64,000 nt of DNA from an uncultured Anaerolineales bacterium (GTDB lineage: Bacteria; Chloroflexota; Anaerolineae; B4-G1): assembly GCA_964542755.1 (NCBI GenBank), contig CAZIWL010000007.1, positions 1,146-65,145 of the forward strand, read 5' to 3'. Positions within the stretch are counted from its first letter, which is position 1, and the number at the start of each line of letters is the position of its first letter. The notes under the pieces are model-generated. The model was not told the DNA's origin. It did not search any database and worked only from the letters and a program-made list of their open reading frames with translations. This document shows, piece by piece, positions 1,141-61,518 of the stretch. The position numbers and the translations under genes were made by a program.

Positions 1141-1151
1141 ACAAGCCTCGG

Positions 1152-1170
1152 CCCTCCCACAGCGGGAGGG
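1152..1170 (+). terminator. GC-rich hairpin after the first peptidase
   Basis: CCCTCCC-acagc-GGGAGGG is a perfect 7-bp stem 12 nt after the stop codon; there is no U-tract. Confidence 0.3.
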
Positions 1171-1328
1171 GCCCGGGTGCAGGGTCCAGCCGAATTGCCT
1201 GGAAAGGGCCGCAGATGGCGCCGGGCGCGTTCTCGCTTGACCATACTCCCGTCCTTGCCGTCGGAGATCTTGGATCCCGCCGGGGGTATACGCCCGCCCG
1301 AACACCGGAGCCTCGCCCCGCCTGCGCC

Positions 1329-1356
1329 TTGACAGATCGTGGGTCTCGGCTAGCAT
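1329..1356 (+). promoter_or_regulatory. Candidate sigma70 promoter for the second peptidase
   Basis: TTGACA(1329-1334)-16 nt-TAGCAT(1351-1356). A strong RBS (TAAGGAGGT) precedes ATG 1496. Confidence 0.5.
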
Positions 1357-1495
1357 GCGACTCTGGCTAGAAAGCCCCGTCGGCGGGTTTGGATCATCCA
1401 TCCTGGTCCCCTCTCCTGGGACGTCATCAGGCCCTCCGGCCCACGGACAGCCACCGCGGCTGCCGGTTCTGATGTCTCTCTAAGGAGGTATCGGG

Positions 1496-12359: not shown

Positions 12360-12478
12360 CTTTGTCTCCATAAGGGTGTCGTTGCTCCTCATCCTCTTGT
12401 GTTCCGCGGATTGCCAACCCCTGCTTCTCAGAGCCCCCCGCATCGAACCGCCGGAGACTCAGCATCGTGGGGTGTGGA

Positions 12479-16981: not shown

Positions 16982-17002
16982 CCTGGGCCTCCGCCGGGTT
17001 CA

Positions 17003-18130
17003 TCAGACGGCCTGCAACTCGATGATCAGATCGTGGATACGATCTAGAGCTGGGCGCAGGTAGTCAGCGGGAAGCCCAAAGCTGATTCGGAGGTGATGGT
17101 CGACACCGAAATGGTCCCCTGCCCCAACCAGGACGCTCTTCTCGCGGATGAGGCGATCCACAAGCTCAGTTGAGTTGATATCCAGGTGATAACGCGGGAA
17201 GGCGATGGCCGCTGCCCGGGGTGGAACCAGACTGAGGGTTCCTTCGTGTTCCTCCAACCAGGCCTCGAAGATCGCAAATCCCCTTCGGATATACCCGCGA
17301 ACACGCTGAATCAGACGAGGACGCACCGAGGGGGAGAGGGCAACGGTCGCGAGCTTGTTGGAAAGCATCGTGGCGCTGATTGTCGCGTACTCGTGACGTC
17401 TCCAGATGGCGTCCCGTGTCTCCTCCGGAGCAACGACCCAGCCGATGCGCAGTCCAGGCAGCCCGTAAGCCTTGCTCAGGCTGTTCATCGCCAGGACTCT
17501 GTCGTAGCGTCCCCAGAAAGTCGGCGTCTGTTCATCCGTCAGCCGTTCCGCTCCGCTGTAGACCTCGTCGGCCAGGATCCAGGCCCCCACCCGATCCGCA
17601 GCCTCCGCAATGCCGTCCATCTCGTCCTCTGAGAGGATGGCCCCCGTGGGGTTGTTCGGATTGCAGACCGCGATCAACTTGGTCTCCTCCGTCACCCTGT
17701 CGTTTAACTCGTCCAGATCCGGGGCCCATCCTTGCTCCTCTCGTAGGTGGAACGGCTTCACCCTGTACCCGCGATTGTGGCCGATGCCCCAGATCTGCAG
17801 ATAGTTGGGAAGCATCACCACGATCTCATCGCCTCTGTCGAGCATGGTCTCGACGGTGATGTAGTTAGCCTCGGCGCAGCCAACCGTCACGAGCACGTTG
17901 TCTGGACCAGCCCCCGGGTAGAGGGCGGCAATCCGCTCCCGCAGTTCCGGGGTGCCCTCCACGTGGGGGTAGTTGAGCTCTGTCGCCATCAGATCATCAA
18001 GGTCCGAACCGTCGCTCAACAACTCTTGCAGCGTCAGAGGATGGGCGCCGCTTTCGGAGAGATTGAACTCGACAGCCTGTTCCCAGTCTGACATGATGCG
18101 CTCAAGCTCGAAGGGGTGAAACTCGGTCAT
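17003..18130 (-). CDS. Class I/II PLP aminotransferase
   Basis: NPNNPTG; ADEVY; SLSKAYGLPGLRIGW (PLP lysine); HLRISF. Confidence 0.9.
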   Translation of the reverse strand: MTEFHPFELERIMSDWEQAVEFNLSESGAHPLTLQELLSDGSDLDDLMATELNYPHVEGTPELRERIAALYPGAGPDNVLVTVGCAEANYITVETMLDRGDEIVVMLPNYLQIWGIGHNRGYRVKPFHLREEQGWAPDLDELNDRVTEETKLIAVCNPNNPTGAILSEDEMDGIAEAADRVGAWILADEVYSGAERLTDEQTPTFWGRYDRVLAMNSLSKAYGLPGLRIGWVVAPEETRDAIWRRHEYATISATMLSNKLATVALSPSVRPRLIQRVRGYIRRGFAIFEAWLEEHEGTLSLVPPRAAAIAFPRYHLDINSTELVDRLIREKSVLVGAGDHFGVDHHLRISFGLPADYLRPALDRIHDLIIELQAV

Positions 18131-19146: not shown

Positions 19147-19830
19147 TCAGAAGCCTCTCTGCTGCCCCTGCCAGGGAGGAGGGGCGTCCTCCCCAAACTC
19201 CTCAACGCTGGGCCCGTTCAACGTCTGCAGCCGCCAGGTGCCGTAGAGATAGCTTGCGACCAGCAGCACAATGGTCGCTGGCCACCCCAGTACGACCGTG
19301 ACGACGCCGAGGGATGCTGCCCCCGCCCTCTGGAATAGCGCCCACTGTATGGCCAGGCGGAGGCTGAAGAAGACCCCCCACGCCGATGTCACCTCGCTGT
19401 AGGCTGGACGTACCTTCGGGTGCCAGTACCACGCCAGCGGCCACCCCCGGGCTAGATGGCTGCTCAATGCCACCAGGGGCCGCCCTATCAGCACACTGAT
19501 CAAGCAAATCAGGGCCGTCAGTCCGCCGTTGACCAGATTGGGAAGAAAGTACCCCTCCGCTCGGTCGCTCCCCAGGGCGGACAAGAGGGCCAGCGCCGTC
19601 GCGGCCAACCCCCCGGCGGCGTAGCCCCAGGGTTCCCCCCGAACGAGACGCACGAGACCCAGCGCGACGGCAACGCCCATCGCACCCCAGCTCGCCGCCG
19701 TGAAGCCGAGCACGGCGTTCAGGACGAGGAAGATAGTGGGGGGAAGAATAGCGTCGATCACGCGGCTGCGACCCGCCACGACCGCGCGGAACTCCTCTAG
19801 CACTTCCTGAAGCCTACTATCTTGTGCCAA
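19147..19830 (-). CDS. DUF3159-like membrane protein
   Basis: AEGYFLPNL; ISVLIGRPLV; WHPKVRPAYSEVTSAW; VVLGWP; mostly hydrophobic. Confidence 0.75.
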   Translation of the reverse strand: MAQDSRLQEVLEEFRAVVAGRSRVIDAILPPTIFLVLNAVLGFTAASWGAMGVAVALGLVRLVRGEPWGYAAGGLAATALALLSALGSDRAEGYFLPNLVNGGLTALICLISVLIGRPLVALSSHLARGWPLAWYWHPKVRPAYSEVTSAWGVFFSLRLAIQWALFQRAGAASLGVVTVVLGWPATIVLLVASYLYGTWRLQTLNGPSVEEFGEDAPPPWQGQQRGF

Positions 19831-19878
19831 CAGTCTATCTCCAAGTTAATGCCCGGCGTCTCGTCCAGTCCAGGGTAG

Positions 19879-19906
19879 AGTATAGCACGCCCGGACCCGC
19901 TGGCAA
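19879..19906 (-). promoter_or_regulatory. sigma70 promoter for the DUF3159-EamA-aminotransferase-EutB-like genes
   Basis: Minus strand TTGCCA-16 nt-TATACT with TG extended -10. Confidence 0.6.
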
Positions 19907-20142
19907 ACCGGTTCGAGTGGAGGTGTCGGCCTGATGCGGGTCCACAAGGTGAGATCGCCACTGGCCCATCTGGGCAGTCCTACGGCTTCTCGGCCTGCGT
20001 GCGCTGTCCCAAAGAGAGAATGCCCGCCATGGTCCGACCGTGTTTCCTTCCCGCGGATGGCGCATACAGTGCTATGAGTCCTTGCTTGGCGACCACAGCG
20101 CCACTGCATATGGAACTCTTATCCTTGTTGTCCAAAACAGCC

Positions 20143-20171
20143 TTGACAAGCATAACGGCTCACGCTATAGT
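20143..20171 (+). promoter_or_regulatory. Near-consensus sigma70 promoter upstream of slyD
   Basis: TTGACA(20143-20148)-17 nt-TATAGT(20166-20171). Confidence 0.8.
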
Positions 20172-20207
20172 CCAGGCATTGCCTAGGTAAGGTGCATGAA
20201 GATCTAG

Positions 20208-20847: not shown

Positions 20848-20880
20848 GAGAAGGCCCGGCCATGTCCGCCGGGCCTTCTC
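20848..20880. terminator. 12-bp perfect hairpin between the convergent slyD and GRE genes (probably bidirectional)
   Basis: GAGAAGGCCCGG-9 nt-CCGGGCCTTCTC. Confidence 0.75.
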
Positions 20881-20941: not shown

Positions 20942-23308
20942 CTAGAATCCCTTGTGCTCGGTCCGGGCGATGATCTCATCCTGCAGGGCCCGGCTCAGGT
21001 CACAGAAGTAGTCGCTGTACCCTGCCACGCGCACGATCAGGTCCCGGTAGTCGTCAGGGTGCTCCTGGGCCGCTCGCAGCGTCTCCGCATCCACCACGTT
21101 GAACTGAATATGGTGCCCATCTAGATTGAAGTACGTGCGGATCAACCGGGCAAACTTGTCCAAGCCGTCATCGCCCTCCAGCACCTGTGGCGTGAACTTC
21201 TGATTGAACAGGGTACCGCCCGTTCGAACGTGATCCATCTTGGTGACAGATCTTATGACCGCCGTCGGTCCCTTGCGGTCGGCTCCCTGGACCGGTGAGA
21301 TTCCTTCGGAGATAGGGCTGCCGCCCCTCCGACCGTCGGGCAAGGCGCCCACAACCGAGCCGAAGTAGACGTGTACCGTCGTGGGCAGCATGTTCACCCG
21401 GTAGGTGCCGCCGCGCGGTGTCGGTCGCCCGTCGACGGCGTTGAAATACGCCTCGAAGACGGCGACCATCACGGCGTCTGCGTAATCGTCGTCGTTGCCG
21501 TATTTGGGGGTCCGGTTTAGAAGCTGTTGCCGGAACCGTTCGCTGCCGCCGAAATCCTCCTGGAGCGCCCGTAGGAGCTCACCCATGGAGAGCGTCTGTT
21601 GGTCAAAGACGTGGTACTTCACGGCAGTCAAGGCGTCACTCATCGTGCCCAGTCCGACGCCCTGGATGTAGTTGGTGTTATAGCGCGTCCCCCCGTCGTG
21701 GTAGTCTCTGCCCCTCGCCACGCAATCGTCCGTCAGAAGGGAGAGGAACGGAGCCGGTAGTTCGCGAGCGAAGAGCCGCTCGATCACATTGTTGCCCCGG
21801 ACCTTGACGTCGATGAAGTACTGGAGCTGCTTTCGGTAGGCGTCGAAGAGCTCTTCGAAGGTCTCAAAGGTTGTCGGATCACCCGTCGACAGGCCGATCA
21901 CATCTCCGGTCCTTGGATCAACCCCATTGTTGAGTGTGATCTCGAGGACCTTGGGCATATTGAAATAGCCGGTTAGGATGTAGCTCTCTTTGCCGAAGGC
22001 CCCCGCCTCGACGCAGCCGCTCGTACCTCCCGCTCGGGCATCCTCGATCGACTTTCCTTGCCTCACCAGCTCCTGAACGATTAAGTCACAGTTGAACACG
22101 TCGGGCTTGCCCATTCCTTGACGGATTACCCGGCAAGTGTGGTCGAGGAATCCCCTGGGGCTCTTCTTGCTGATCTGGACCGATGGGTTGGGCTGCACCT
22201 GACGCATCGTTGCGATCACGTCTAGCATCAGGTGTGAGAGCTCGTTGGAGCCGTCGGAGCCATCCTGCCTCAGCCCGCCGAGGTTGATCTGCACGAAATC
22301 GGTGTACGTGCCGCTTTCCTCGGCCGTCACGCCTACTTTGGGCGGGGCCGGCTGATTGTCGAACTTGATCCAAAGGCACTGGAGCAATTCCTCGGCCTCT
22401 TCGCGTGTCAATGTGCCCGCGTCGACGTCCCGACGGTAGAACGGAAAGAGGTGTTGATCCAGATGCCCGGGACAGAACGCATCCCACGGATTCAACTCAG
22501 TGGTGACTCCGAGGTGCACGAACCAGTAGTACTGGATCGCCTCCCAGAAACTACGCGGCCCGTGCGCGGGGACGTGTCTGCAGATCGCGGCGATGCGGTC
22601 CAATTCCGCCCTCCGATCAGGGTCATTCTCCTGGCTGGCGAGCTCGATAGCCAGATCCGCGTGACGCTCCGCGAATCGAACCAGGGCATCCGCACAGATC
22701 CGCATAGCCGTCAACTCTTCCTGCTTGTCGTAGGCCTCTGGGTCGCCCAGGTAGTCGAGACCCCTCAGCTGCTGCGTGATCTCCCGCTTGAAGTCGAGCA
22801 TCCCCTTGCTGTATATCTTATCGTCGTGGACAGTGTGCCCCGGGGAGCGCTGCTCCATGAACTCGGTGAAGACCCCCGCTTCGTAAGCGGCCTTCCACGC
22901 CTCGGTCATCTCACCGAATATCCTGTCTCGCATCGACCGACCCTCCCAGAAGGGAATGATCGTGTCGCGGTAGACCCTCTTGGCGTCGTCGCTGACGGCG
23001 AAGGACGTCTTCTCCCGTGAGTCGAGAATATCGAGGTCTTCCATGGAGTGGCAGCAGAGCTCTGGGTACGTGGGGGCTGCCTTCGGGCGGGGGCCTTTCT
23101 CTCCCACGATCAGCTCGTCTGGCGCGATTATGATCGTCTTCCTGTCCATCAGATGACGGAAGGCCAGCGCACGCTCCACCGGCGTCGACAACGGTCGTCG
23201 CTGTTCTTTGTAGAACGCCGTCAGGAGCTCGGCCCGTTCGGCTGAGAGCGCGGTGACAGCCTCGCGGCTCTGCTCCCTCAGTCGACAAACTCGTTCAGTC
23301 ATTTCCAT
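20942..23308 (-). CDS. hypD: Glycyl radical enzyme, trans-4-hydroxy-L-proline dehydratase (HypD)-type
   Basis: RVAGYS (glycyl radical); GTSGCVE (Cys/Glu). TEFMEQRSPGHT, WDAF, ESGTYTDF, SYILTGY and MLPTT carry the residues recalled for C. difficile HypD (F152, H160, D278, S334, D339/F340, Y450, T645). Length is 788 aa. Confidence 0.85.
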   Translation of the reverse strand: MEMTERVCRLREQSREAVTALSAERAELLTAFYKEQRRPLSTPVERALAFRHLMDRKTIIIAPDELIVGEKGPRPKAAPTYPELCCHSMEDLDILDSREKTSFAVSDDAKRVYRDTIIPFWEGRSMRDRIFGEMTEAWKAAYEAGVFTEFMEQRSPGHTVHDDKIYSKGMLDFKREITQQLRGLDYLGDPEAYDKQEELTAMRICADALVRFAERHADLAIELASQENDPDRRAELDRIAAICRHVPAHGPRSFWEAIQYYWFVHLGVTTELNPWDAFCPGHLDQHLFPFYRRDVDAGTLTREEAEELLQCLWIKFDNQPAPPKVGVTAEESGTYTDFVQINLGGLRQDGSDGSNELSHLMLDVIATMRQVQPNPSVQISKKSPRGFLDHTCRVIRQGMGKPDVFNCDLIVQELVRQGKSIEDARAGGTSGCVEAGAFGKESYILTGYFNMPKVLEITLNNGVDPRTGDVIGLSTGDPTTFETFEELFDAYRKQLQYFIDVKVRGNNVIERLFARELPAPFLSLLTDDCVARGRDYHDGGTRYNTNYIQGVGLGTMSDALTAVKYHVFDQQTLSMGELLRALQEDFGGSERFRQQLLNRTPKYGNDDDYADAVMVAVFEAYFNAVDGRPTPRGGTYRVNMLPTTVHVYFGSVVGALPDGRRGGSPISEGISPVQGADRKGPTAVIRSVTKMDHVRTGGTLFNQKFTPQVLEGDDGLDKFARLIRTYFNLDGHHIQFNVVDAETLRAAQEHPDDYRDLIVRVAGYSDYFCDLSRALQDEIIARTEHKGF

Positions 23309-23391
23309 AGGCTCGGCCCTCCCAATACGTGGGGCAGATGTCGCCCCCCGTTAGATCTTAGACGTGGCAGCTTGCTCTCTCACTATCTAAC

Positions 23392-24294
23392 CTATCCGGG
23401 CATCACGTTCAAACCCCGGGACCGTAGACGCTCCCGGACCTCTTCAATCCTCTCCGGCCCGGGCGGTTGGATCTCTGGCATAGGACAATGCTTGCCCAAC
23501 CGCTCATACTTATCGCGCCCGATCTCATGATACGGCAACACGTCAATTCCATCAAGGGCCGGAAGGCTGAGGGCGAGGGTGCCGATGGCGCGAAGACTCG
23601 ACTCATCCTCGTTGATTCCCGGTATCAGCGGCACACGTAGAAGGATGTGCTCACCGTGCTGGGAGAGTGCACGCAGGTTTGCCAGGATGCGCTCGTTGGA
23701 CACACCCGTGACCTCCCGGTGGCGCTGGTCGTCAACCAGTTTCAGATCGTACAGGAAAAGGTCCACGTCCTCCCGCAGCTCATCAAGCACAGTCCAGGGT
23801 CCAAAGCCGCAGGTGTCCAGACAGGTGTGAACCCCCTCTCGGCGGCAAGCCGCCAGGAGACCGCGCAAAAAGTCCGGCTGGGACAGCGGTTCACCCCCTG
23901 AAAACGTGACGCCACCCTCGGACGTATCATAGAAAGGTGCGTCACGCAGGATCTCGTCCACCACCTCGCCGACGGTCATCTCCCGGCCCACCATCTCACG
24001 TGCCTCGGCGTAGCAGACCTCGACACAGGCCCCGCAGCGGGTGCAGCGCCTCCTGTCCGTGGTCATGTCACACTCATCGGATGCGATAGCGCCCTGCTTG
24101 CAGACAGCGACACAGGCCTGGCATCCGATACACCGTCCAGGGCGCAGGATCAGCTCCGGCGCGAGTAACTGTCCCTCGGGGTTATGACACCACCAGCAGT
24201 GCAGGGGGCAACCCTTGAGAAACACCGTGGTCCGAATCCCCGGGCCGTCGTGTATCGAGAACTTCTTGATGTCAAAGACGATTCCGCTCAACAT
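23392..24294 (-). CDS. GRE activating enzyme (radical SAM) with a ferredoxin-like insert
   Basis: DGPGIRTTVFLKGCPLHCWWCHNPE; CIGCQACVAVC and CTRCGACVEVC; GGVTFSGGEP; LPYH. Confidence 0.95.
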   Translation of the reverse strand: MLSGIVFDIKKFSIHDGPGIRTTVFLKGCPLHCWWCHNPEGQLLAPELILRPGRCIGCQACVAVCKQGAIASDECDMTTDRRRCTRCGACVEVCYAEAREMVGREMTVGEVVDEILRDAPFYDTSEGGVTFSGGEPLSQPDFLRGLLAACRREGVHTCLDTCGFGPWTVLDELREDVDLFLYDLKLVDDQRHREVTGVSNERILANLRALSQHGEHILLRVPLIPGINEDESSLRAIGTLALSLPALDGIDVLPYHEIGRDKYERLGKHCPMPEIQPPGPERIEEVRERLRSRGLNVMPG

Positions 24295-24432
24295 GACCTC
24301 AGTCCCTGGTGCCCCAAACCTCCTTGCTCAGAACCGGGCGGCGACAGCCAGCTTGTCGGAGTCTTCGCTGGCCCCCTCAGCAGCACGGGGGCTGCGCAGG
24401 TGTCGAAGGGCCATCCGATCCATCAAAGCGAA

Positions 24433-24458
24433 ACCGCCAGACTGGTTGATCTGGCGGT
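24433..24458 (-). terminator. Intrinsic terminator after the racemase
   Basis: ACCGCCAGA-8 nt-TCTGGCGGT perfect 9-bp stem; on the minus strand it is followed by TTCGCTTTG. Confidence 0.6.
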
Positions 24459-24513
24459 GTAGGGTCCTCTCCTATCTCGTCCGGCAGGCATGTGGAACCC
24501 GGGGCCCGATGCC

Positions 24514-25527
24514 CTACGGGGATCCTCCCTCCAGCAAGAAGCCGGACTTGAGCGGATCGTCACGGTCCACGACGAAGTGCTGGAAGCCTGTCACGTAGGC
24601 TCGACCGGCAATCTCGGGTATCACCGCGTCGAAGGTTCCTACTTTCGTCTCTCGGAGCAGGCGGCCCGTGAAGCGCGTGCCCAAAATGCTCTCGTTCACA
24701 AAAGGCTCGTCCAGCCCGAGATGTCCCTTCGCGTACAATGCCGCCATCTTGGCGCTCGTTCCGGTGCCACACGGGGACCGGTCCGCCTGCGACTCGCCGA
24801 AGATGACGACGTTGCGGCAGTCCACGTCGTCTTGTGGTCTGTCCTCATAGATCTCCACCAGGTCGATAGCGTCGATGTGGGGAGCCGTGGGATGGACCAC
24901 GTCGAGCTGCTCGTTGACCGCTGTCAGGATCTCCATGCCCTTGGCCGTGAGCTCTGCGAGGTTGGCCCGCTCCACTGGAAGGCCCAACTCCCCGGCGGGC
25001 ACGAGGGCGAAGAAGTTCCCTCCAAATGACACGTCCACCGTCAACCGACCCGAAGAGAGCTCAAGCTCGAGATCGTGCCGGTACAGGAAGGCGGGCACAT
25101 TCTCCACCGCGATTTCGCCAACTCGACCGTCTTCCACCTGAGCACGGGCGCGTACCAGCCCTGCGGGTGTGTCCAGCACGACGTCTGTCTCTGGCTCCTC
25201 GGCGGGGACGACGCCCGTTGCGAGTGCAGCGGCCACGGCCCCGATGGAGCCGTGCCCGCACATTGCCAGATAACCCCCTGTGTCCATGAAAACCACGCCT
25301 AGATCTGCTTCGGGGGAGGCCGGCGCCATCAGAATGGCGCCGAACATGTCTGCATGCCCGCGAGGTTCGTGCAAGAGCGTAGTACGGATGGTGTCGTATG
25401 CTTGCTGAAGCCGCTCGCGCCTTTCCGCCATGGTGCCGGGCAGGAACGGAACGCCGCCGACAACTACGCGGGTCGGCTCACCCGCTGTGTGTGTGTCGAC
25501 GGTGGTGAACACGTGCTCGTACGTCAT
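24514..25527 (-). CDS. prdF: Proline racemase (two-cysteine type)
   Basis: DTHTAGEPTR; EPRGHADMFG; FMDTGGYLAMCGHG; DVSFGGNF; NVVIFG..DRSPCGTGT. Both catalytic Cys are present, and the aromatic residues (DMFG, NVVIF) are typical of proline racemases rather than Hyp epimerases. ATG overlaps the upstream stop (ATGA). Confidence 0.85.
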   Translation of the reverse strand: MTYEHVFTTVDTHTAGEPTRVVVGGVPFLPGTMAERRERLQQAYDTIRTTLLHEPRGHADMFGAILMAPASPEADLGVVFMDTGGYLAMCGHGSIGAVAAALATGVVPAEEPETDVVLDTPAGLVRARAQVEDGRVGEIAVENVPAFLYRHDLELELSSGRLTVDVSFGGNFFALVPAGELGLPVERANLAELTAKGMEILTAVNEQLDVVHPTAPHIDAIDLVEIYEDRPQDDVDCRNVVIFGESQADRSPCGTGTSAKMAALYAKGHLGLDEPFVNESILGTRFTGRLLRETKVGTFDAVIPEIAGRAYVTGFQHFVVDRDDPLKSGFLLEGGSP

Positions 25528-26303
25528 TCCCACTCCCTGCTTCCCGAGGCGGCGTCCCCACCCAGGTACGCCTCAATCACGTGGGGATCGTTCTGCACGG
25601 CCGTCGGCTCTCCGGAGGCAATCACTTTTCCTGCGTCGAGAACGTAGACGTACTCGCAGACGCCGCTGATCACGCGCATCTTGTGCTCGACGATCATCAT
25701 CGTCTTCCCTTCAGCATGGATGTCCTTGAGGAGCTCCATGATCTGATCCGTGAGGGCTAGATCGACGCCCGCTGTGGGCTCGTCCAACAGGAGGAGGTCG
25801 GCGTCGGTCATCAGGGTCTGAGCGATGGCCAGAAGCTTGACCTGACCTCCGGACAGACTTCCGGTTACCTCATCTCGCTGATCCAGGAGCCCCACCCGGT
25901 CCAGCAACGCCTCGGCCCGCTCGATTTGCTGCTTGCCCTGACGCCGAACGGCAGGCCAACGCAACAGGACTGCCAGGGGATTCTCCCCCGTCAGCCGCTG
26001 ACCAGCCACCAGCATGTTTTCCATCACGGTCATGTCCCGAGGAACCTGTGGGATCTGGAAGGAGCGAACCATGCCGCGATTGGCAATGCTGTGGGGAGGG
26101 AGATCGCCGATGGAGTTGCCCCGGAGCTCCACGGTGCCCCTGTCCTGCTCGTAGAAACCCGTGATCACATTGAAGAGCGTTGTCTTGCCCGACCCGTTCG
26201 GCCCAATAAGGCCCGTGATGGACCCCTCTTTGACGCTGAGAGAGACAGCGCTCAAGGCCTGAAGGCCGCCGAACGCCTTGTGGATATCGTTGATTTCTAG
26301 CAT
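25524..26303 (-). CDS. livG: LIV-type ABC transporter ATP-binding subunit
   Basis: GPNGSGKTT; LSGGQ; LLLDEP; VEH; VIEAYLG. Confidence 0.92.
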   Translation of the reverse strand: MLEINDIHKAFGGLQALSAVSLSVKEGSITGLIGPNGSGKTTLFNVITGFYEQDRGTVELRGNSIGDLPPHSIANRGMVRSFQIPQVPRDMTVMENMLVAGQRLTGENPLAVLLRWPAVRRQGKQQIERAEALLDRVGLLDQRDEVTGSLSGGQVKLLAIAQTLMTDADLLLLDEPTAGVDLALTDQIMELLKDIHAEGKTMMIVEHKMRVISGVCEYVYVLDAGKVIASGEPTAVQNDPHVIEAYLGGDAASGSREWE

Positions 26304-27214
26304 CAGCTGCCTCCCTCCTCTTTCCCATAGGAGACCACGTGCCTACGCTCTGGAAGGATGCCCTGTGGTCGCGCCACGACAAACCCGATCGTCAAGACAC
26401 CTATCGACAGCGTCCGCAAGGCGGCCACGAGGCTGCTGGGTAGGTAGAGGTAGTCCTTGAGGAGTCGCGTCGAGGTATTGAGCAAGGTGATGACAAGAGC
26501 ACCAAGGAGGACTCCTTTTGCATTGCCCGAACCACCGACGATCATCATCGTCCAGATCAAGAACGTCACATCGGGTGCAAACGTCTCAGGACTGATGAAG
26601 GTGATGTAGTGCGCGTATAGACTTCCACCCAGAGCTGCCACCAGGCCGCCGACGATCATCGCCAGGGCCTTGAAGCGGAAGACGTCCTTGCCCAAGGCCT
26701 CCATGAGATCCTCCGCCTCGCGGAGGCCGCGCAGGACCCTCCCAAAGGGCGAGCGGTTCAGTCGCTCCAGGGCGAAGTAGACTGCCGCCAGGCAGACCAC
26801 CACGAACACGAGATAGAAGAGGGTGTAACTGTCGCCGAAGAGCGAGGAGAGCGGGCGAGGGATGCCGCGAATTCCGAACGGGCCCTCAGCCAGCCATTTC
26901 TCGTTGTTCACGAAAAGGCGCAGGCTCTCGGCCGCTGCGATGCTCACGATCGCCCAGTAATCGGCCCTCAGGTTGTGGGAGGGCAGGGCGATGATTAACG
27001 CGAAGATCGACGAGACGACCATACCGGCAAGCACCCCGAAGACAAAGGGCACGCCCGCCATGTACATCATCGCCGATGTGTATGCTCCGATCAGCATGAA
27101 AGCCGCTTGACCGAAGTTGGAGAGACCCGTCAGGCCGACCTGGAAGTTCAGGCTGAGGGCTACGATGGCGAAGATACCCGTCATAACCAGGAAATGAATC
27201 AGAAATGCTAGCAC
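26303..27214 (-). CDS. livM: LIV-type ABC transporter permease
   Basis: GLTGLSNFGQAAF; SPFGRVLRGLRE; GSLYAHY; GGSGN. GTG 27214 has a GGAG RBS. Confidence 0.9.
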   Translation of the reverse strand: MLAFLIHFLVMTGIFAIVALSLNFQVGLTGLSNFGQAAFMLIGAYTSAMMYMAGVPFVFGVLAGMVVSSIFALIIALPSHNLRADYWAIVSIAAAESLRLFVNNEKWLAEGPFGIRGIPRPLSSLFGDSYTLFYLVFVVVCLAAVYFALERLNRSPFGRVLRGLREAEDLMEALGKDVFRFKALAMIVGGLVAALGGSLYAHYITFISPETFAPDVTFLIWTMMIVGGSGNAKGVLLGALVITLLNTSTRLLKDYLYLPSSLVAALRTLSIGVLTIGFVVARPQGILPERRHVVSYGKEEGGS

Positions 27215-27215
27215 G

Positions 27216-28094
27216 TTATGACTCCTTTCTTCCCAGGACGCCACTAGGTCGGATGAGGAGGGTGAGGATGAGGACGATGAAGGCCAGTGCGGGCTTGTAC
27301 CGCACCGGGAACTGGAAACCGCCGATGTTGATGGCAATGCCAATGTTTTCGGCGGCTGCGAAAATCAGCGATCCAACCATCGCCCCATAGACGTTGCCGA
27401 TGCCCCCGAGGATGACCACACAGAAGGTCGCCAGGAGGATGACCTGGCCCATGCTCGGACGGAGCTGGGTCTCCAGGCCGATCAGGATCCCGCCGATGGC
27501 TGCGAAGGCGCACGCAAGGAACCAGACGTACAGCACCACGCGTTCGGTGTCGATCCCTGTTGCCTCGGCCAGCTCCCGATTGTCCGAGGTGGCGCGGATC
27601 GATCGCCCCAGATTCGTCCGATGAAGGAAGAGGTGGAAGCCGAGCATAGCGACGCCGGCGACGACCACGATCAGAATGCGGATCGGGGTCACTGTGGCCC
27701 CTAGAATCGTCAGCGGCTCCTGGACACCCAGGCCGTAGTCCTTAATCTGGCCGCCCCAGAAGACCTGTACCAGGCTGCGGATGCCCTGTGCCAGCCCGAT
27801 GGATGCGACCATCCGAATGAACGCGCTGCTCTCCCGCAGCCATTGGAAGATCGCGCGATCGGTGAGCATGCCCAGAATCCCGGTGATGATGACTGCCAGG
27901 ACGGCGGCCAGGATGAGGGGCATCCCGAGGCCTACGGAGAACAGCAGAGCGAGATAGGCGCCTAACGTGGCGAATGAATTCTGAGCGAAGCTGGCGAAAT
28001 CGAGAAGATCATACACCAGGGTCAGACTGATGCCGATCAGAGCTAGCTCGCTGGCTCGAGTCAGGATGTTGAAGATAAGCTGCGTTATTTGCAC
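27216..28094 (-). CDS. livH: LIV-type ABC transporter permease
   Basis: ALIGISLTLVY; TNLGRSIRATSDN; ATGID; LGGIGNVYGA. GTG 28094 has a GGAGG RBS. Confidence 0.9.
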   Translation of the reverse strand: MQITQLIFNILTRASELALIGISLTLVYDLLDFASFAQNSFATLGAYLALLFSVGLGMPLILAAVLAVIITGILGMLTDRAIFQWLRESSAFIRMVASIGLAQGIRSLVQVFWGGQIKDYGLGVQEPLTILGATVTPIRILIVVVAGVAMLGFHLFLHRTNLGRSIRATSDNRELAEATGIDTERVVLYVWFLACAFAAIGGILIGLETQLRPSMGQVILLATFCVVILGGIGNVYGAMVGSLIFAAAENIGIAINIGGFQFPVRYKPALAFIVLILTLLIRPSGVLGRKES

Positions 28095-28189
28095 GTCGAC
28101 CTCCTCCAAGTCAGGAGCGGGTTGCAGGGGGATGAGATAGACGACAGGGCAGCGCGCCCCGAGGAGCGCGCTGCCCACGGCCTTCAGTT

Positions 28190-29311
28190 CTACTGGTTGT
28201 ACAACTCCACGTGACCGTCGGTATAGATCAATTCGTCGTACGGCTGCTCCAGGCGCTGACCGTTCTCATCGAACTCAAGATCACCGGTGGCGGCATCGTA
28301 CCCCTTCGCCACCTCGGGGAGCGTGTTCTTGATGGACTCCGCGTCGGTGCCCCCTTCCCGCATCGCCAGCGCGATCAGCCACGCGGCATCGTACGCCAGG
28401 TAGCTGAAGGGGCCGCCGGGTTCCTCACCGAACTTCTCCTTGAAGGCCTCGGTGAAAGCCTGACCCGCCGGCATGTGGTACGCTGGCTCCAGGCCGATGT
28501 GCCCGTCGACAGTCTGGGGGTCGGCGACGCCTGTGCACATGGTCAAGTAGCCACCGATCCACTGGGCTTCCGCGCCCATCTCCATCGCCTGCTTGGTCAG
28601 GATCTTCGACTCCTCGCCGTAGGCCGTGTAGAGGATCGCCTCAGGATCCCCTTCGAATAGCCTCTGCAGCTCGGCTCGGTAGTCCGTCTGGGCCAGCGGG
28701 TACTCGATGATGGTCGTGATTTCGCCGCCGTTCTCCTCGAAGGTCTTGACCATCCATTCCTCCATCCCGATCCCGAAGGGGTTGTTCGGTACCAGGATGG
28801 CAGCCTTGGTGTAGCCTTCATCCAGCGCCAGCTTAGCTTGCTCGGAACCCATCAGGTGATCCAGGCCGATGGTGCTGAAGAAGTAGTCGCCAACCTCGGC
28901 ACACTTAGGGGACGTGGAGCCCGGGTTAACCATTACCACGCCCTGCTCCTGGGCGTAGGCTGCCGCTGGGAGGGTAACGCCGCTCGAGAAGATGCCGATG
29001 ATAGCCGGGACCTTGTTGACGTCGATGAGCTTGTGAGCGGCATCGGTGCCAGCCTCGGGACGGGACTCGCTGTCCTCGAAAATCACCTTCAGGTCACGGC
29101 CGTCGATGCCTCCATCCGCGTTGATCTGCTCGACCGCCAACTCCACGCCACGGCGCTCATCAATACCCTCATGTGTCGATGCGCCCGTCAGGGGGAAGAT
29201 CGCACCGATCGTCAGTTCGCCACCACCGCCTCCCAGCTGCCCACAGGCCGTCGTGGGGAGCAAGAGGACGACAACCACTAGTAGCGCAACAAGCTTGTGC
29301 AGGGTCTTCAC
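28190..29311 (-). CDS. livK: LIV-type ABC substrate-binding lipoprotein
   Basis: Lipobox-like LPTTAC; IGAIFPLTG; GVELAVEQINADGGIDG; YLAYDA; ATGDLEFDENG. Confidence 0.9.
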   Translation of the reverse strand: MKTLHKLVALLVVVVLLLPTTACGQLGGGGGELTIGAIFPLTGASTHEGIDERRGVELAVEQINADGGIDGRDLKVIFEDSESRPEAGTDAAHKLIDVNKVPAIIGIFSSGVTLPAAAYAQEQGVVMVNPGSTSPKCAEVGDYFFSTIGLDHLMGSEQAKLALDEGYTKAAILVPNNPFGIGMEEWMVKTFEENGGEITTIIEYPLAQTDYRAELQRLFEGDPEAILYTAYGEESKILTKQAMEMGAEAQWIGGYLTMCTGVADPQTVDGHIGLEPAYHMPAGQAFTEAFKEKFGEEPGGPFSYLAYDAAWLIALAMREGGTDAESIKNTLPEVAKGYDAATGDLEFDENGQRLEQPYDELIYTDGHVELYNQ

Positions 29312-29502
29312 TTCCTACCTCCTCGTGGATTCTACTGTACGCTCTCTCAGCGTCGTTCGTTGACGCTTGACAGTTCGAGGCGATCGTCTCGCTTCTGGTT
29401 CGGCACCACCTCCTTTCTTTGCCTGCGTCTCCGGAACCATTGGATGGTCGCTCCACCATGTTGGGGGCGAGTCTCAAGGCTGCTCCGGTTCTAGGGGTGG
29501 AG

Positions 29503-30216
29503 CTACGCGCCGCCCAGGTAGGCGGCTTTAACCTGGGGATCCGCCCTCAGTTCTTCGACCGATCCCTCCAGAACAACATGACCGGACTCGATCACGTAGC
29601 CACGCTCGGCGACCGAGAATGCCATACGGGCATTCTGTTCCACGATGAGGATGGTCATGCCTTCCTCGTTCAGCTTCCGCGTAACGTCGAAGATCTCTTG
29701 TACGAGAAAGGGGGCCAGTCCCATGGAGGGCTCATCGAGAAGCAGAAGATCCACATCGCTCATCAAGGCGCGGGCGATAGAGAGCATCTGACGCTCGCCA
29801 CCGCTGAGGGTCCCGGCAAACTGAGTCGTCCGCTCCTCCAGGCGAGGGAACACGGAGTATACCCATTCCAGGTCTTCCTGGACGGCTTTCTGATCCCTGC
29901 GGGTGATTGCCCCCATCTTGAGATTCTCCAAGACGGTGAGGGTGGGGAAGACCTGGTGCCCATCCGGGACCAACACGAGTCCCTTTGTGACCAGTCGATG
30001 AGCCGGAGTGCCCTGAATCTCCTCGCCTCGGTACCTCACACGCCCAGATCGTGGGGACAGGAGGCCGCTGATGGACTTGAGTGTGGTGGTCTTGCCAGCT
30101 CCATTGGCACCGATCATCGTTACGATCTCACCCTCATCGACCGTCAGGGAGACCCCGAAGAGTGCCTGCATGTCGCCATAGGAGGTGTGGATGTCCTCGA
30201 CTTCCAGGATGGCCAT
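29503..30216 (-). CDS. livF: LIV-type ABC transporter ATP-binding subunit
   Basis: GANGAGKTT; LSGGERQM; LLLDEPSMGLAP; VEQN; AYLGG. Confidence 0.93.
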   Translation of the reverse strand: MAILEVEDIHTSYGDMQALFGVSLTVDEGEIVTMIGANGAGKTTTLKSISGLLSPRSGRVRYRGEEIQGTPAHRLVTKGLVLVPDGHQVFPTLTVLENLKMGAITRRDQKAVQEDLEWVYSVFPRLEERTTQFAGTLSGGERQMLSIARALMSDVDLLLLDEPSMGLAPFLVQEIFDVTRKLNEEGMTILIVEQNARMAFSVAERGYVIESGHVVLEGSVEELRADPQVKAAYLGGA

Positions 30217-30297
30217 TGGTGCTCCTTCTCGATCTTGACTACGAAGCCCCCGGGAGAAGGGTTGTACCGTGGCGGGGTATGCGGCTGGTTAATTTCG

Positions 30298-30329
30298 ATT
30301 ATATTCACGACACTTGAAGGTGTCAAGTG
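30298..30329 (-). promoter_or_regulatory. Perfect-consensus sigma70 promoter with an overlapping palindromic operator, driving the ABC-racemase genes
   Basis: Minus strand TTGACA(30326-30321)-17 nt-TATAAT(30303-30298). CACTTGA-N5-TCAAGTG (30311-30329) covers the -35 element. Confidence 0.85.
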
Positions 30330-30439
30330 GGCATTCCTCCCGATAAACCGCGACAACTCTCACCAGTCAGCCCCAAGCGTCGGAGGGCGAGCCCGCTGGC
30401 TCACCGTGCGTTGATCATCGTTCTTCGCTCTACAAAAAG

Positions 30440-31597
30440 CTACTTAAGCTTCTCTTCGGCACCAAACTCCCGATAGGGACTGAGCTCCTCAAGCGTTTCC
30501 TCATCCTCCGGCGTCAGGTCCTCCTGGACCAGACGGCAGAGCACAGATCCCAGGCCGGGCCCGAGCATGAAACCCTGACCGCACATGCCGACGGCGAAGA
30601 TATAGCCCTCCAGTCCCTTGGAGCGTCCGACGATGGGGAAGCCATCGGGCGTCATGGGATAGAGCCCGCGCCACGTTCGGCGAACTCGAATGTTCGCGAG
30701 CTTCGGCATTAGGCCGACCATCCGCGGCGCTATCATGGGCAGGAAATCTGAAGTCTCTCGGCGATCGGTCCCTACGATGGGGGGCTCGGGGGTGATACAG
30801 AACACCAGGGCTCCGGTTCCGTGCTGATAGAAGTAGTAGTTCTTCGAGCCCTCAGCCGGGCGCAGGTCGACGACCATAGGTTCGAGAAACCGTCTCACCG
30901 GTTCTGTGATGCCTGCCTCGTGGCTGTCCGGGGTCACCGGCGCGTCGAGCCCTGCCATCCGGGCCGCCTGTCGACCCCACGCTCCAGCCGCGTTAATGAC
31001 TGTCTCCGTCGCGTATCCTCCCTGGTCCGTCCGGACGCCAACAACCTTGCCCCGTCGCGTAATGATGCCCGTGACTCTCTCGTTGAAGTGAAATCGTGCT
31101 CCGCGCTCCGCAGCACGCTTGTAGAAGGCGTGAGCACTGAGGAGCGGGGACGCGGAGCCGTCGCTGGGTGAGTAGGTACCGCCGATCAGGTTATTCCGGT
31201 TCAGCGAAGGGATGACGTCGAGCAGATCGTCCCGGTTCAGCCACTTGATCTCCAGCCCGAAGCCATGCTGGACGTCTAGCAGGTCCTTCAGGGCTTGTTC
31301 CTCCCGCTCGCGGTAGGCGACGAAGGAGTAGCCGCCCCGGTGCCACTCGATGTCATCGCCGTAAGTCTCTTCCCATGTGGAGAAGACCTGAAGCGACTCG
31401 ATGCATAGGCGAATCTTGGACCTGGCTGAGTGCGTGGCTCGGATGCCGCCGATGGCAGCCTTGTTGGACCCCTGCCCAGGACTGGCGAATTGGTCGATGA
31501 CCAGGGGCTGGAGGCCTGCCTCGGCTAGAGAGAGAGCTGTCGGCAGTCCCACACTCCCCGCACCGATGATCACGGCGTCGTAGACTTTGGTGGTCAT
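30440..31597 (-). CDS. DAO-family FAD oxidoreductase, beta subunit of a dye-linked proline dehydrogenase/sarcosine-oxidase-like complex
   Basis: IIGAGSVG; GSNKAAIGGIR; VINAAGAW; RTWRGLYPMTPDGFPIVG; GMCGQGFMLGP. Confidence 0.85.
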   Translation of the reverse strand: MTTKVYDAVIIGAGSVGLPTALSLAEAGLQPLVIDQFASPGQGSNKAAIGGIRATHSARSKIRLCIESLQVFSTWEETYGDDIEWHRGGYSFVAYREREEQALKDLLDVQHGFGLEIKWLNRDDLLDVIPSLNRNNLIGGTYSPSDGSASPLLSAHAFYKRAAERGARFHFNERVTGIITRRGKVVGVRTDQGGYATETVINAAGAWGRQAARMAGLDAPVTPDSHEAGITEPVRRFLEPMVVDLRPAEGSKNYYFYQHGTGALVFCITPEPPIVGTDRRETSDFLPMIAPRMVGLMPKLANIRVRRTWRGLYPMTPDGFPIVGRSKGLEGYIFAVGMCGQGFMLGPGLGSVLCRLVQEDLTPEDEETLEELSPYREFGAEEKLK

Positions 31598-31599
31598 GC

Positions 31600-33732
31600 T
31601 TACATGCCTCCCTCGTGTGCGTCCGTGGCGTGGGTGACCAGCACGTGTTCGGAAGGTCTCTCCCCCGCGCTAACCCCGGCGAAAGCCCCGAGGGGGACCT
31701 CCATGAAGAGCGGACGCTGTGTGTTCTCCTCGATGCTCTCGAGCTCGATCCCTTCCTCGCGGAAAAGCCGCTCGATCAGCGTGGTACACGTCTTGCCGCC
31801 GCAGGCTCCCATCCCGGCCCGAGTGACGGCTTTGATGTAGTTCATGTCGCGCACACCAGACCGAATCAGTTCCCGGATCTCCCCCGCCGTGACCCGCTCA
31901 CAACGGCAGATGATCTCGTCGTCCGCTAGCCGCTCAACGGCCTGTCCCTCGGCCTCCGTGACCCAGGGGTCCTGGACTCGAATGCCGGCGATCCGTTTCG
32001 CGATCTCTCGGGGCGCTCTCACTCGCACGAGGAGGGCACGGTCGGCAAACCGGGGGGTGCGCACACGCGAGACCTCAACGTTGCCAAGCACCTTTCCTTC
32101 CGTGTCCAGCACGGTCACAATGTCGCCGGCGTCGATGGTCTCCGATGGGAACTCGTAGGGGATTGTGACTGTGGGACGCAAGCGGTCGTCACGGTAATCG
32201 ACCAGTGTGATCGCCAGTCCCGGACAGACGGCGACGCACTGCTCGCAACCGATACATCCGTCTCCGATGTACTGCGGCAGGCCGCGGATGTCATTGCGCT
32301 CGATGACGATGCTTTCCTGAGGGCACACGGACGTGCAAGGGTTGCAGGGGATTTCCTGAGCACAGTGGAGGACCGGCAGGACACCTTCCTCCCCCTCCGG
32401 GATGTCCTCCGTCACGACGGCGCCAGGCCTCGACTTGAGAATCTCGGCGGTCCGATGCCACTCGGGGGGAATGTCCCCTACGTCCCTCCCCAACGTTCTC
32501 GCGATCTCCAGGCCACGAATCCGACCGGTGAACATAGCTGCCGATGCCTCGGCAATCTCCTCTGCGTCGCCAGCTGCGTAGACAGGAAGACCAAAGGTCT
32601 CTGCCTTCTCCACGAACTCGTCCACCGGCTCCAGCCCAACAGCCACGAGGACTGTATCGCACGCAAAGGTCTTCTCCGTGTCGGGGATGGGTTCCCAGTT
32701 GTTGTCGATCTCGGCGATGGTGACCGAATCGACCCGACTCTCGCCGTTGGCGCTTACGATGGTGTGGGAGGTGTAGATCGGGACGCCCAGGCGGCTCAAC
32801 TTGTCCTTGTGAACCTTGTAGCCGCCACACTCAGCCAGCGCCTCGCAGAGACCGATTACCTTGATATCCGCCTGCAGGGCGTGATAGCCAGCTATCAAGC
32901 CCACGTTCCCCCCGCCCACGATGAACAGCCGATCAGCCGACTTCACCATGTCGCGGTTGACCAGCGTCTGGAACGCACCGGCACCGTAGACACCGGGCAG
33001 GGTGTTCCCCTTGAACGCCAGGGACTTCTCCCGGGCCCCGGTTGCCACCAGAAGTGTCTGAGGGCGGACCAGCAGATAGTGACCCTCCCTCAGCAGACCG
33101 ACTTTTCTGTCGGAGAAGACGGCAAGGGCCGTAGAGTCCAGCCAGACCTGCACGTTCTCGAAGTCACGCACCTCTTCTTCGAGTTTCTCGGCGATGTCGA
33201 TGCCTCTCGTCCCAGCGTAGCAAGCTTCAATCGATCCGAAGAATTTGTGCGTCTGGAGCACCAGCTTGCCCCCCAGACGGTGTTTGTCGTCGACGATGAG
33301 GGTCCGGACGCCAGCCTTGCCCAGTTCGATGGCCGCGGAAAGCCCGGCCGGACCGCCGCCAATGATCAGGCACTCGATGTCGATCGTTCCGATGGGGTGA
33401 GTCTCCGGCGCGCTCTGAATGTCAGGCAGGGTCGGCCGTCCGTCCATGGGCTGGACATCCATCCCGGCAAGCACGGGTGCCATACACGACTTGACGGGGA
33501 TGCCATCCGCCATCACCAGGCACTGAGCACATTGCCCGTTGGCACAGAAGATGCCCTGGGGGGCGCCGTCCTTATGGTGATGCCCGAATATGCGGATGCC
33601 GTTGGCGAACAGGGCCGATGCGATGGTCTCACCCGCGTGCCCCGTCAGGGTCTCACCCTGCCAGGTGAACTCGACGGCCTCTTCCTCTTCGGCCGCGAGG
33701 ATGGGATGCTCACGGATCCGATAGTCCGTCAT
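31600..33732 (-). CDS. Fused alpha subunit: 2Fe-2S domain, FAD/NAD oxidoreductase, 2x[4Fe-4S] ferredoxin and BFD-like Fe-S domain
   Basis: GIFCANGQCAQC; IIGGGPAGL; ATGARE; VGGGNVG; CAQEIPCNPCTSVCP and CIGCEQCVAVCPG; IICRCERV...RAGMGACGGKTC. Start set at ATG 33732 (AAGGAG RBS). Confidence 0.85.
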   Translation of the reverse strand: MTDYRIREHPILAAEEEEAVEFTWQGETLTGHAGETIASALFANGIRIFGHHHKDGAPQGIFCANGQCAQCLVMADGIPVKSCMAPVLAGMDVQPMDGRPTLPDIQSAPETHPIGTIDIECLIIGGGPAGLSAAIELGKAGVRTLIVDDKHRLGGKLVLQTHKFFGSIEACYAGTRGIDIAEKLEEEVRDFENVQVWLDSTALAVFSDRKVGLLREGHYLLVRPQTLLVATGAREKSLAFKGNTLPGVYGAGAFQTLVNRDMVKSADRLFIVGGGNVGLIAGYHALQADIKVIGLCEALAECGGYKVHKDKLSRLGVPIYTSHTIVSANGESRVDSVTIAEIDNNWEPIPDTEKTFACDTVLVAVGLEPVDEFVEKAETFGLPVYAAGDAEEIAEASAAMFTGRIRGLEIARTLGRDVGDIPPEWHRTAEILKSRPGAVVTEDIPEGEEGVLPVLHCAQEIPCNPCTSVCPQESIVIERNDIRGLPQYIGDGCIGCEQCVAVCPGLAITLVDYRDDRLRPTVTIPYEFPSETIDAGDIVTVLDTEGKVLGNVEVSRVRTPRFADRALLVRVRAPREIAKRIAGIRVQDPWVTEAEGQAVERLADDEIICRCERVTAGEIRELIRSGVRDMNYIKAVTRAGMGACGGKTCTTLIERLFREEGIELESIEENTQRPLFMEVPLGAFAGVSAGERPSEHVLVTHATDAHEGGM

Positions 33733-51798: not shown

Positions 51799-51820
51799 GT
51801 TACCGCACTTTTCCGGATTC

Positions 51821-56343: not shown

Positions 56344-56481
56344 CGCTCGCACGTGCAGGTTCCAGATACGTCGATGGACGAAGAGCGCTGCAATCTCGGT
56401 TCCCAGACACTCTGGCGTCTCCTGGCCCATTCCTCCAAAGCGTATCAGCCGCCATCCGAACTCGCTCGAGCGAGTGGGTCA

Positions 56482-58563: not shown

Positions 58564-58618
58564 GATCGACTCCTACTCATGCACGGTGCTAAGGGCTGAA
58601 TCTTTGCGCAGGGGCTCC

Positions 58619-61487: not shown

Positions 61488-61518
61488 TCTCGCGTGCCCC
61501 TGTCTCGCGTCTCGCGAC

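Follow-up and report, generated by a model that had tools for sequence, protein, structure and literature searches.

The closest described system to the locus analyzed here is the proline gene cluster of Thermococcus, which encodes a Cys/Cys proline racemase (ProR), two heteromeric L-proline dehydrogenases, LhpI and LhpH (PMC4141209, PMC4364671; 2014-15). Genes for a 'pyruvate-formate lyase' (PFL), labelled putative, as well as for a Ser/Thr dehydratase often flank such ProR/L-ProDH/LhpI clusters in thermophilic archaea and bacteria, and the archaeal glycyl radical enzyme (GRE) was labelled a putative PFL with no link drawn to hydroxyproline (Hyp) (PMC4141209, PMC4364671). The GRE known to act on trans-4-hydroxy-L-proline, HypD, is widespread; its reductive use is known in Clostridiales, and how most non-clostridial anaerobes use its product is an acknowledged open point (PMC6219649). 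Here we analyzed a 64,000-nucleotide stretch (the window) of contig CAZIWL010000007.1 from an uncultured Anaerolineales bacterium, which carries on its minus strand, at 20942-33732, a locus for HypD and its activase, a proline racemase, a LIV-type ABC importer and an Fe-S/flavin dehydrogenase of two subunits, alpha and beta. Judged by its genes, this locus is most probably a gene-fused bacterial counterpart of the archaeal proline/hydroxyproline cluster.

The locus consists of ten consecutive genes, in transcription order alpha, beta, livF, the substrate-binding protein (SBP), livH, livM, livG, racemase, activase and HypD (Table 1). The original prediction had given this order and these limits exactly, and its gene identifications were right. 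The ten-gene string with an identical HypD protein is present on at least four independent metagenome contigs, which rules out an assembly artefact. Additionally, both flanks of the locus occur on one 240-kb metagenome contig (ERZ27256776:k141_1848978).

The best-supported reading of the locus is that D/L-proline and hydroxyproline converge on pyrroline-5-carboxylate (P5C). We give it a slightly better than even chance. The LIV-type importer would bring in proline-family imino acids, and the racemase would equilibrate D- and L-proline, feeding L-proline to alpha-beta. The FAD subunit beta would oxidize L-proline to P5C, and from there the electrons would flow through the flavin and up to four Fe-S clusters of alpha to a carrier such as NAD(P)+ or ferredoxin. 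Under anoxia, activase and HypD would dehydrate trans-4-hydroxy-L-proline straight to P5C. Lastly, genes outside the window would provide for the further use of P5C, in the simplest case through a P5C/glutamate-semialdehyde dehydrogenase yielding glutamate. What the genes are, the active site of HypD, the signature of the racemase, the fused make-up of alpha and the modules that vary between relatives are read from the sequences; in this scheme we infer the importer ligand, L-proline as the substrate of beta, the electron acceptor, the oxidative direction and the fate of P5C.

The HypD protein passes the NCBIfam equivalog NF043068 with 1294.9 bits (cutoff 1100) and aligns without gaps to C. 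difficile HypD (6VXC) at 1070 bits. In this alignment all 15 active-site positions checked are identical, at a constant offset of -2, including the radical Gly765 and the Cys434-Val435-Glu436 (CXE) loop. Residues found by mutagenesis to be essential or substrate-binding are kept (His160, Asp278, Asp339, Ser334, Phe340, Tyr450 and Thr645), among them the four that are specific to HypD (D278, D339, S334 and F340). The 788-aa GRE is, on this evidence, very probably HypD. We also considered HplG, the trans-4-hydroxy-D-proline C-N lyase whose pathway also includes OrtAB and a Hyp epimerase (Duan et al. 2022, summarised in PMC13450708). In both systems a GRE acting on a hydroxyproline adjoins a racemase-family gene. 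However, the window GRE scores only 407 bits against HplG (7VUA) compared with 1070 against HypD, it keeps the HypD-specific residues, and the window has no OrtAB thiolase; HplG was rejected.

The activase contains a CX3CX2C radical SAM motif (CPLHCWWC) at residue 29 and two auxiliary CX2CX2CX3C ferredoxin-type motifs at residues 55 and 84. With 363 bits it exceeds the cutoff of 174 for the GRE-activase subfamily TIGR02494, and with 365.9 bits it stays under the cutoff of 425 for the HypD-activase equivalog NF043069, as does the Thermococcus activase (378 bits). We assign it to HypD because the two genes adjoin. HypD, activase and racemase are all ordinary members of known families.

The dehydrogenase links the locus to the archaeal enzymes. 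Alpha begins with a [2Fe-2S] Fer2_4 domain (Cys63/68/71/83), followed by Rossmann motifs for FAD and NAD(P) (GGGPAG at 125, GGGNVG at 273), a ferredoxin domain for 2x[4Fe-4S] (Cys457-470 and 493-503) and a BFD-like domain for [2Fe-2S] (Cys609/611/644/649), so that its Cys motifs account in total for two [2Fe-2S] and two [4Fe-4S] clusters. Its matches in the PDB are the N-terminal part of SoxA and PH1363. Moreover, it is colinear with the alpha (residues 5-436, 39% identity), gamma (456-586, 35%) and delta (605-686, 41%) subunits of Thermococcus proline dehydrogenase (PDH); alpha thus joins in one chain the counterparts of three subunits of the archaeal alpha-beta-gamma-delta L-proline dehydrogenase. 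The subunit set of the T. profundus and P. horikoshii PDH2-type enzyme is present in full, with alpha, gamma and delta fused in order.

The best solved relative of beta is 1Y56_B, the beta subunit of P. horikoshii L-proline dehydrogenase (180 bits), and the next reaches at most 96 bits. Against the two Thermococcus subunits, beta2 and beta1, the identity of beta is 30% and 28%, and it reaches no NCBIfam equivalog model. Plasmid-borne proteobacterial homologues, whose function is unknown or opine-type, score alike (29-33% identity). A search for the substrate among annotated plasmid homologues returned 1231 records, all below 33% identity and with generic annotation; the Azospirillum homologue belongs to an HcnABC/opine-type trio beside a LIV transporter, not to an Lhp cluster.

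The racemase has a Cys/Cys catalytic pair, Cys92 in MCGH and Cys255 in SPCGTG, and is therefore a racemase or epimerase, not a 3-Hyp dehydratase. Its specificity sites 1, 4 and 5 are F64, L225 and F245 (mapped via the TlProR numbering F62/L221/W241). True proline racemases have Phe/Leu/Phe at these sites and Hyp epimerases Ser/Val, His and Cys/Tyr; in the bifunctional Thermococcus enzyme the last site is Trp (PMC4364671). The signature is thus of the proline-racemase and not the Hyp-epimerase type, and because site 5 is Phe, not Trp, the enzyme is predicted to be proline-specific. Among PDB entries the best match, at 403 bits, is ProR of Acetoanaerobium sticklandii (7PB3). On the proline racemase model NF010576 the protein scores 480.6 bits, which is under the cutoff of 556 yet makes this its top model; lower scores come from the T3LHyp dehydratase model (344 bits) and the best 4-Hyp epimerase model (330 bits). 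The ATG of the racemase gene overlaps the livG stop codon (ATGA), an arrangement of translational coupling that ties the racemase to the LIV importer.

The importer itself, of the LIV/HAAT family, is complete, with an SBP, two BPD_transp_2 permeases and two ATPases with a BCA_ABC_TP_C tail; none of these components reaches the E. coli Liv equivalog cutoffs. PDB relatives of the SBP are Leu/Ile/Val binders and Atu2422-type proteins at no more than 111 bits. Such generic relatives proved uninformative about the ligand, and solved structures were set aside as a guide to it.

Comparison with a Thermococcus genome (GCA_014361105.1, locus L105) places these genes in a described context. The archaeal order is SSF, PDH beta-delta-gamma-alpha, a PDH of the alpha4-beta4 type (beta, alpha), LhpI, ProR, SNF, GRE, LhpH and activase; the activase is parted from the GRE by the LhpH gene (L105:12793-17266). 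The 819-aa GRE scores 1165 bits on NF043068, is 56% identical to the window HypD and has 15 of the 15 active-site residues. The published Thermococcus 'PFL' is, by these measures, a bona fide HypD. A search of a paper library gave no text that ties the GRE of the archaea either to hydroxyproline or to the dehydrogenases. The original prediction had known of no description of the gene combination, but in substance there is one: an equivalent enzyme set is already contained in the Thermococcus cluster papers, with its HypD under the name of a PFL (PMC4141209, PMC4364671).

Common to the window locus and the Thermococcus cluster (T. litoralis/T. sibiricus; L105) are a GRE of the HypD type accompanied by its activase, a racemase of the Cys/Cys kind, an L-proline dehydrogenase that is heteromeric and of the Fe-S/flavin type, and transporters for amino acids; proC, prd and a P5C dehydrogenase are missing from both. 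They differ in several respects. The window has a single 710-aa protein in which alpha, gamma and delta are joined, and one dehydrogenase complex instead of two; a LIV-type ABC importer takes the place of SSF/SNF symporters, and LhpH and LhpI are missing. Additionally, the window racemase has Phe at site 5 where the Thermococcus enzyme has Trp, and beta is only 28-30% identical.

The HypD-proC (+prd) loci of Clostridioides difficile and other Clostridiales (PMC6219649, PMC7077986) share with the window orthologous HypD and activase and an identical HypD active site, and the window racemase is related to the Stickland proline racemase. In contrast, the window has no nearby P5C reductase or D-proline reductase; a PDH-type complex and an ABC importer stand in their place, and for this reason oxidation is favored over reduction. 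The aerobic Lhp pathway of Pseudomonas and Sinorhizobium (LhpA, LhpB/E/F, LhpC, LhpD) likewise combines a racemase-family enzyme, a heteromeric DAO/2Fe-2S/FAD dehydrogenase and an ABC importer. However, the window racemase is ProR-type and no LhpC or LhpD is linked to it, and an anoxic setting is indicated by the strictly anaerobic GRE and the 4Fe-4S domains.

We judged the content of the window from Pfam labels of called genes and of large open reading frames tiling the whole 64 kb. P5C reductase, Prd, PutA/PRODH and aldehyde dehydrogenase families are absent from these labels; the absence of proC and prdAB from the window, noted in the original prediction, thus holds. The sole NAD-dependent look-alike is a prephenate dehydrogenase at 40395-41408.

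The original prediction had named conserved neighbourhoods in Anaerolineae as a check, and these revealed an alpha-beta core, conserved at 76-99% identity, with a variable slot downstream. Fused alpha proteins abound in Anaerolineae and Chloroflexota (7888 matches at E<=1e-20), and the best 120 of the 7888 are 73-99% identical and ~710 aa long. A genome scan with alpha gave 12 loci, several of them on short contigs. Among the related loci examined, three have window-like flanks: L100 (GCA_964514285.1; alpha 85% identical) with LIV-A, activase and a 272-aa HypD remnant, L104 (81%) with LIV-B, activase and an intact HypD, and L020 (85%, alpha cut by the contig end), in which only the downstream flank is seen and LIV-B is followed by HypD directly. 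L011 (82%) has alpha-MFS-beta followed by LIV-A and the racemase. In L101/L102 (76%) LIV-B is followed by an ornithine-cyclodeaminase (OCD)/LhpI-like gene and EamA, and L103 (78%) has the OCD/LhpI-like gene and EamA. L011 and L100 have the LIV-A type SBP of the window, at 81-93% identity; the LIV-B type SBP of L020, L104 and L101 shares only ~30% identity with it. No prd or proC gene lies within +/-10 kb of L100-L104.

Several of these loci showed further rearrangements. In L100, at 19363-20181 and syntenic with window 20942-23308, an in-frame deletion of approximately residues 261-777 has left only 272 aa of HypD. The first ~260 residues are joined straight to the last ~12 (…EEIIARTEHQAF), with loss of the Cys loop and the glycyl radical site; the activase, alpha-beta and LIV genes are intact despite this deletion. 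In L011 (10001-14647) an MFS gene stands between alpha and beta, and in L008 (4393-7733) and L009 (2672-6012) alpha is followed by an MFS transporter with no beta within the contig. L103 (13298-16351) and L101 (18394-22118), which lack HypD and the racemase, carry, with alpha-beta, the OCD/LhpI-like gene and EamA, a second DAO flavoprotein that is ~30% identical to beta, and the OCD gene of L101 is split into pieces of 63 and 268 aa.

HypD neighbourhoods were also surveyed beyond the alpha-beta loci, in 80 environmental HypD loci (62-78% identity), and neighbour families were counted for 149 immediate neighbours from 64 of them. The activase is the sole recurrent neighbour (57 of 80). Besides it, the commonest family is a GntR/FCD regulator with five of the 149 immediate neighbours, and the P5C-reductase family has fewer than two. 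That HypD normally goes with P5C reductase, as the original prediction assumed, is true mainly of Clostridiales. A few HypD loci do carry proline genes, namely ProR-like genes in L039 and L051 and genes for DPP-IV and S9 prolyl peptidases in L039.

Signals between the genes, taken with the related loci, suggest three transcription units, [alpha beta], [livF-SBP-livH-livM-livG-racemase] and [activase-HypD], as far as consensus matches can tell. The 223-bp gap between beta and livF contains a consensus sigma-70 promoter, and the racemase-activase gap contains a terminator-like hairpin (Table 1). Because of these two signals the ten genes are probably not one operon. The livM and livG genes overlap. 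An inverted repeat, CACTTGA-N5-TCAAGTG, overlaps the -35 box of the livF promoter (30298-30340, minus strand) and is a plausible operator; there is no regulator gene within the ten-gene cluster. No common k-mer of at least 10 nt, as expected of a shared operator, was found upstream of alpha, livF, SBP, activase and HypD, and no riboswitch or RNA element was matched in Rfam (E<=0.1) between 19000 and 36000.

Convergence on P5C is supported by the accessory genes of the relatives, because the variable partners of alpha-beta are expected to yield either L-proline (racemase, OCD/LhpI-like) or P5C (HypD). It is also supported by the co-location in Thermococcus, which is independent of the Anaerolineae arrangement. 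A number of observations weigh against it. No P5C-consuming enzyme is found in the window or within +/-10 kb of any relative examined. Beta is only ~30% identical to any characterized enzyme and reaches no equivalog model, which weakens the assignment of its substrate and stereospecificity; relatives in its superfamily oxidize sarcosine, opines, D-hydroxyproline or glycine. A D-proline-specific beta would make the racemase redundant, a variant that we count inside the uncertainty of the convergence reading. Some alpha homologues have no adjacent beta (L008, L009), and alpha may there work with other partners, or the alpha-beta pair may be split. HypD is gained or lost independently of the other genes, as seen in the promoter and terminator signals, the L100 remnant and the lack of fixed HypD neighbours elsewhere. 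The HypD-bearing Anaerolineae loci moreover share synteny (HIT ... FKBP) and may go back to one ancestral insertion, not to repeated selection. Lastly, for a fermenter the transfer of electrons from proline (about -0.12 V) to NAD+ or ferredoxin is an uphill reaction. Alpha-beta might instead be a reversible, even electron-bifurcating, P5C/proline oxidoreductase that uses NADH and ferredoxin and takes the place of ProC, a speculative proposal that we think quite improbable. If it were true, non-Stickland anaerobes such as Anaerolineae would use Hyp-derived P5C as an energy-conserving electron sink, or alternatively hydroxyproline would be disproportionated to proline and glutamate.

A single ancestral insertion would raise the question of whether the co-location is merely historical, with activase-HypD being a mobile two-gene module that landed once beside a proline/imino-acid operon in an Anaerolineae ancestor and shares with it only a substrate class. 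The module is bounded by a terminator-like hairpin upstream and a strong terminator downstream, and its two genes form the only recurrent pair in the environmental survey. All HypD-bearing alpha-beta loci have the same flanks, HIT upstream and FKBP/DUF3159/EamA downstream, and L100 has kept alpha-beta and LIV intact beside its HypD remnant. However, HypD, PDH-type dehydrogenases and a racemase also occur together in Thermococcus, in another gene order and another domain of life, and a functional link is favored because this pairing is hard to explain otherwise. The further HypD loci with proline genes (L039, L051) argue in the same direction. We consider a purely historical co-location unlikely, though its chance is appreciable.

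The direction of metabolism is the second point on which readings divide. In a reductive, Stickland-like scheme, the reduction of HypD-made P5C to L-proline would fall to an unlinked ProC, or to alpha-beta working backwards on NADH/ferredoxin, the racemase would supply D-proline to a D-proline reductase encoded elsewhere, and Hyp would serve as an electron acceptor. In its favor, the reduction of P5C with NADH is strongly exergonic. Alpha carries a Rossmann motif of the NAD(P) type and Fe-S clusters of the low-potential type, and the closest characterized relative of the racemase is the Stickland enzyme of A. sticklandii. Clostridiales use HypD in this way (PMC6219649). Nevertheless, prd and proC are absent from the 64 kb and from the 10 kb to either side of related loci, and the racemase is missing in three of the four syntenic HypD-bearing relatives (L020, L100 and L104). 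Alpha-beta also occurs without HypD, together with an importer and L-proline-producing enzymes, which is the layout of a catabolic operon and not of a reductase, and the characterized archaeal homologues oxidize proline (PMC4364671 and references therein). We leave the reductive scheme a small chance. The original prediction had offered an Lhp-type alternative, in which the racemase would epimerize trans-4-L-Hyp to cis-4-D-Hyp and alpha-beta, as an LhpB/E/F-like D-Hyp dehydrogenase, would form pyrroline-4-hydroxy-2-carboxylate in parallel to HypD. The domain families of alpha and beta are indeed those of HcnABC/LhpBEF dehydrogenases (Fer2_4, Pyr_redox_2 with BFD, DAO), and a gene of the DHDPS family, which includes LhpC, is present at 11472-12443. 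That gene, however, lies 8.5 kb off behind unrelated genes and best matches dapA under its cutoff, and the window has no α-ketoglutarate semialdehyde (KGSA) dehydrogenase. The racemase has Phe/Leu/Phe and no HypE signature, scoring 481 bits as a proline racemase against 330 on the best 4-Hyp epimerase model, and alpha is colinear with L-proline dehydrogenase alpha-gamma-delta including the ferredoxin-like gamma part. Relatives moreover keep alpha-beta without any epimerase (L100, L104, L020 and L103). With a ProR signature in the window, and with most HypD-bearing relatives having no racemase, the Lhp-type alternative is disfavored and in our view highly improbable.

Every gene of the locus belongs to a known family, and no new enzyme family or chemistry is implied; the advance is incremental. 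Modestly new are the alpha-gamma-delta fusion, the coupling of a LIV importer to the racemase and a recurrent Anaerolineae arrangement with a variable accessory slot. Of similarly modest novelty is the recognition of the archaeal 'PFL' as a HypD, which links HypD to proline-dehydrogenase complexes in two domains of life. Together, the window locus, its Anaerolineae relatives and the Thermococcus cluster suggest a concrete, testable non-Stickland route for the use of Hyp, in which a GRE and an Fe-S/flavin PDH-type complex lead to P5C with no proline reductase. Additionally, the fused alpha with beta would make up a bacterial version, compact and encoded by two genes, of an enzyme that has so far been studied in hyperthermophilic archaea alone, and such a version would be convenient for biochemistry.

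Table 1. Genes and predicted signals of the locus, in transcription order, with positions in the window.
Feature	Position	Strand	Basis
Alpha, fused Fe-S flavoprotein, 710 aa	31600-33732	minus	Pfam, Cys and Rossmann motifs
Beta, FAD-dependent DAO family, 385 aa, presumed catalytic imino-acid dehydrogenase	30440-31597	minus	PF01266 230 bits
Sigma-70 promoter TTGACA-17-TATAAT upstream of livF	30298-30326	minus	12/12 consensus matches
livF-type ABC ATPase	29503-30216	minus	LivF model 262 bits, under equivalog cutoff
LIV/HAAT-family substrate-binding lipoprotein (livK type, 'LIV-A')	28190-29311	minus	Peripla_BP_6 194 bits
livH-type permease	27216-28178	minus	BPD_transp_2
livM-type permease	26303-27214	minus	BPD_transp_2
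livG-type ABC ATPase	25524-26303	minus	Family models
Proline racemase, 337 aa, Cys92/Cys255 type	24514-25527	minus	PF05544 403 bits
Terminator-like hairpin, racemase-activase gap (219 bp)	24433-24458	minus	10-bp stem, T-rich tail
Glycyl-radical-enzyme activase	23392-24294	minus	TIGR02494 363 bits, radical SAM motif
HypD, trans-4-hydroxy-L-proline dehydratase, 788 aa	20942-23308	minus	NF043068 1295 bits
Strong terminator-like hairpin after HypD	20848-20880	minus	13-bp stem, 10 G-C pairs

The genes that flank the locus are housekeeping or unrelated. Upstream are HIT, a MiaB-like radical SAM enzyme, PriA, a glycosyltransferase, prephenate dehydrogenase and a long array of PMT_2 glycosyltransferases. 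Downstream are FKBP, DUF3159, EamA, an aminotransferase, a EutB-like dehydratase, the DHDPS-family gene, UvrD helicases and papain-like proteases. For two large proteins of the window, exact look-up found no record.

Some of these neighbours are of interest in their own right. At 15980-18130 on the minus strand, the EutB-like pyridoxal-phosphate (PLP) dehydratase reaches 411.7 bits on the hydroxyectoine dehydratase model, whose cutoff is 413. It neighbours an aminotransferase-fold protein closest to PRK07324 and the GntC/VioD cyclodehydratases. Upstream of this pair is a gene of the EamA exporter family, and the pair is also found 3' of HypD in L020 (12947-15124). The presence of the EutB-like dehydratase near the window HypD may be compared with the Ser/Thr dehydratase genes flanking archaeal proline clusters (PMC4141209). 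Further along the same strand, at 11472-13666, the DHDPS-family gene (best model dapA, 172 bits, cutoff 206) adjoins a BhcA-like class-V aminotransferase, and the two could be a small hydroxy-/oxo-acid module instead of part of lysine biosynthesis.

Close to the ends of the window are two further groups of genes. On the plus strand at 199-3808 are two papain-like Peptidase_C1 proteins with lectin-like and DUF4082 domains, the first truncated by the window start; the pair is consistent with extracellular protein scavenging by a peptide/amino-acid fermenter. On the minus strand at 44370-63906 is an unbroken array of approximately eight large membrane proteins (690-930 aa), mostly with PMT_2/PMT domains and adjoined by a Wzy_C protein, which looks like an expanded paralogous family for envelope glycosylation.

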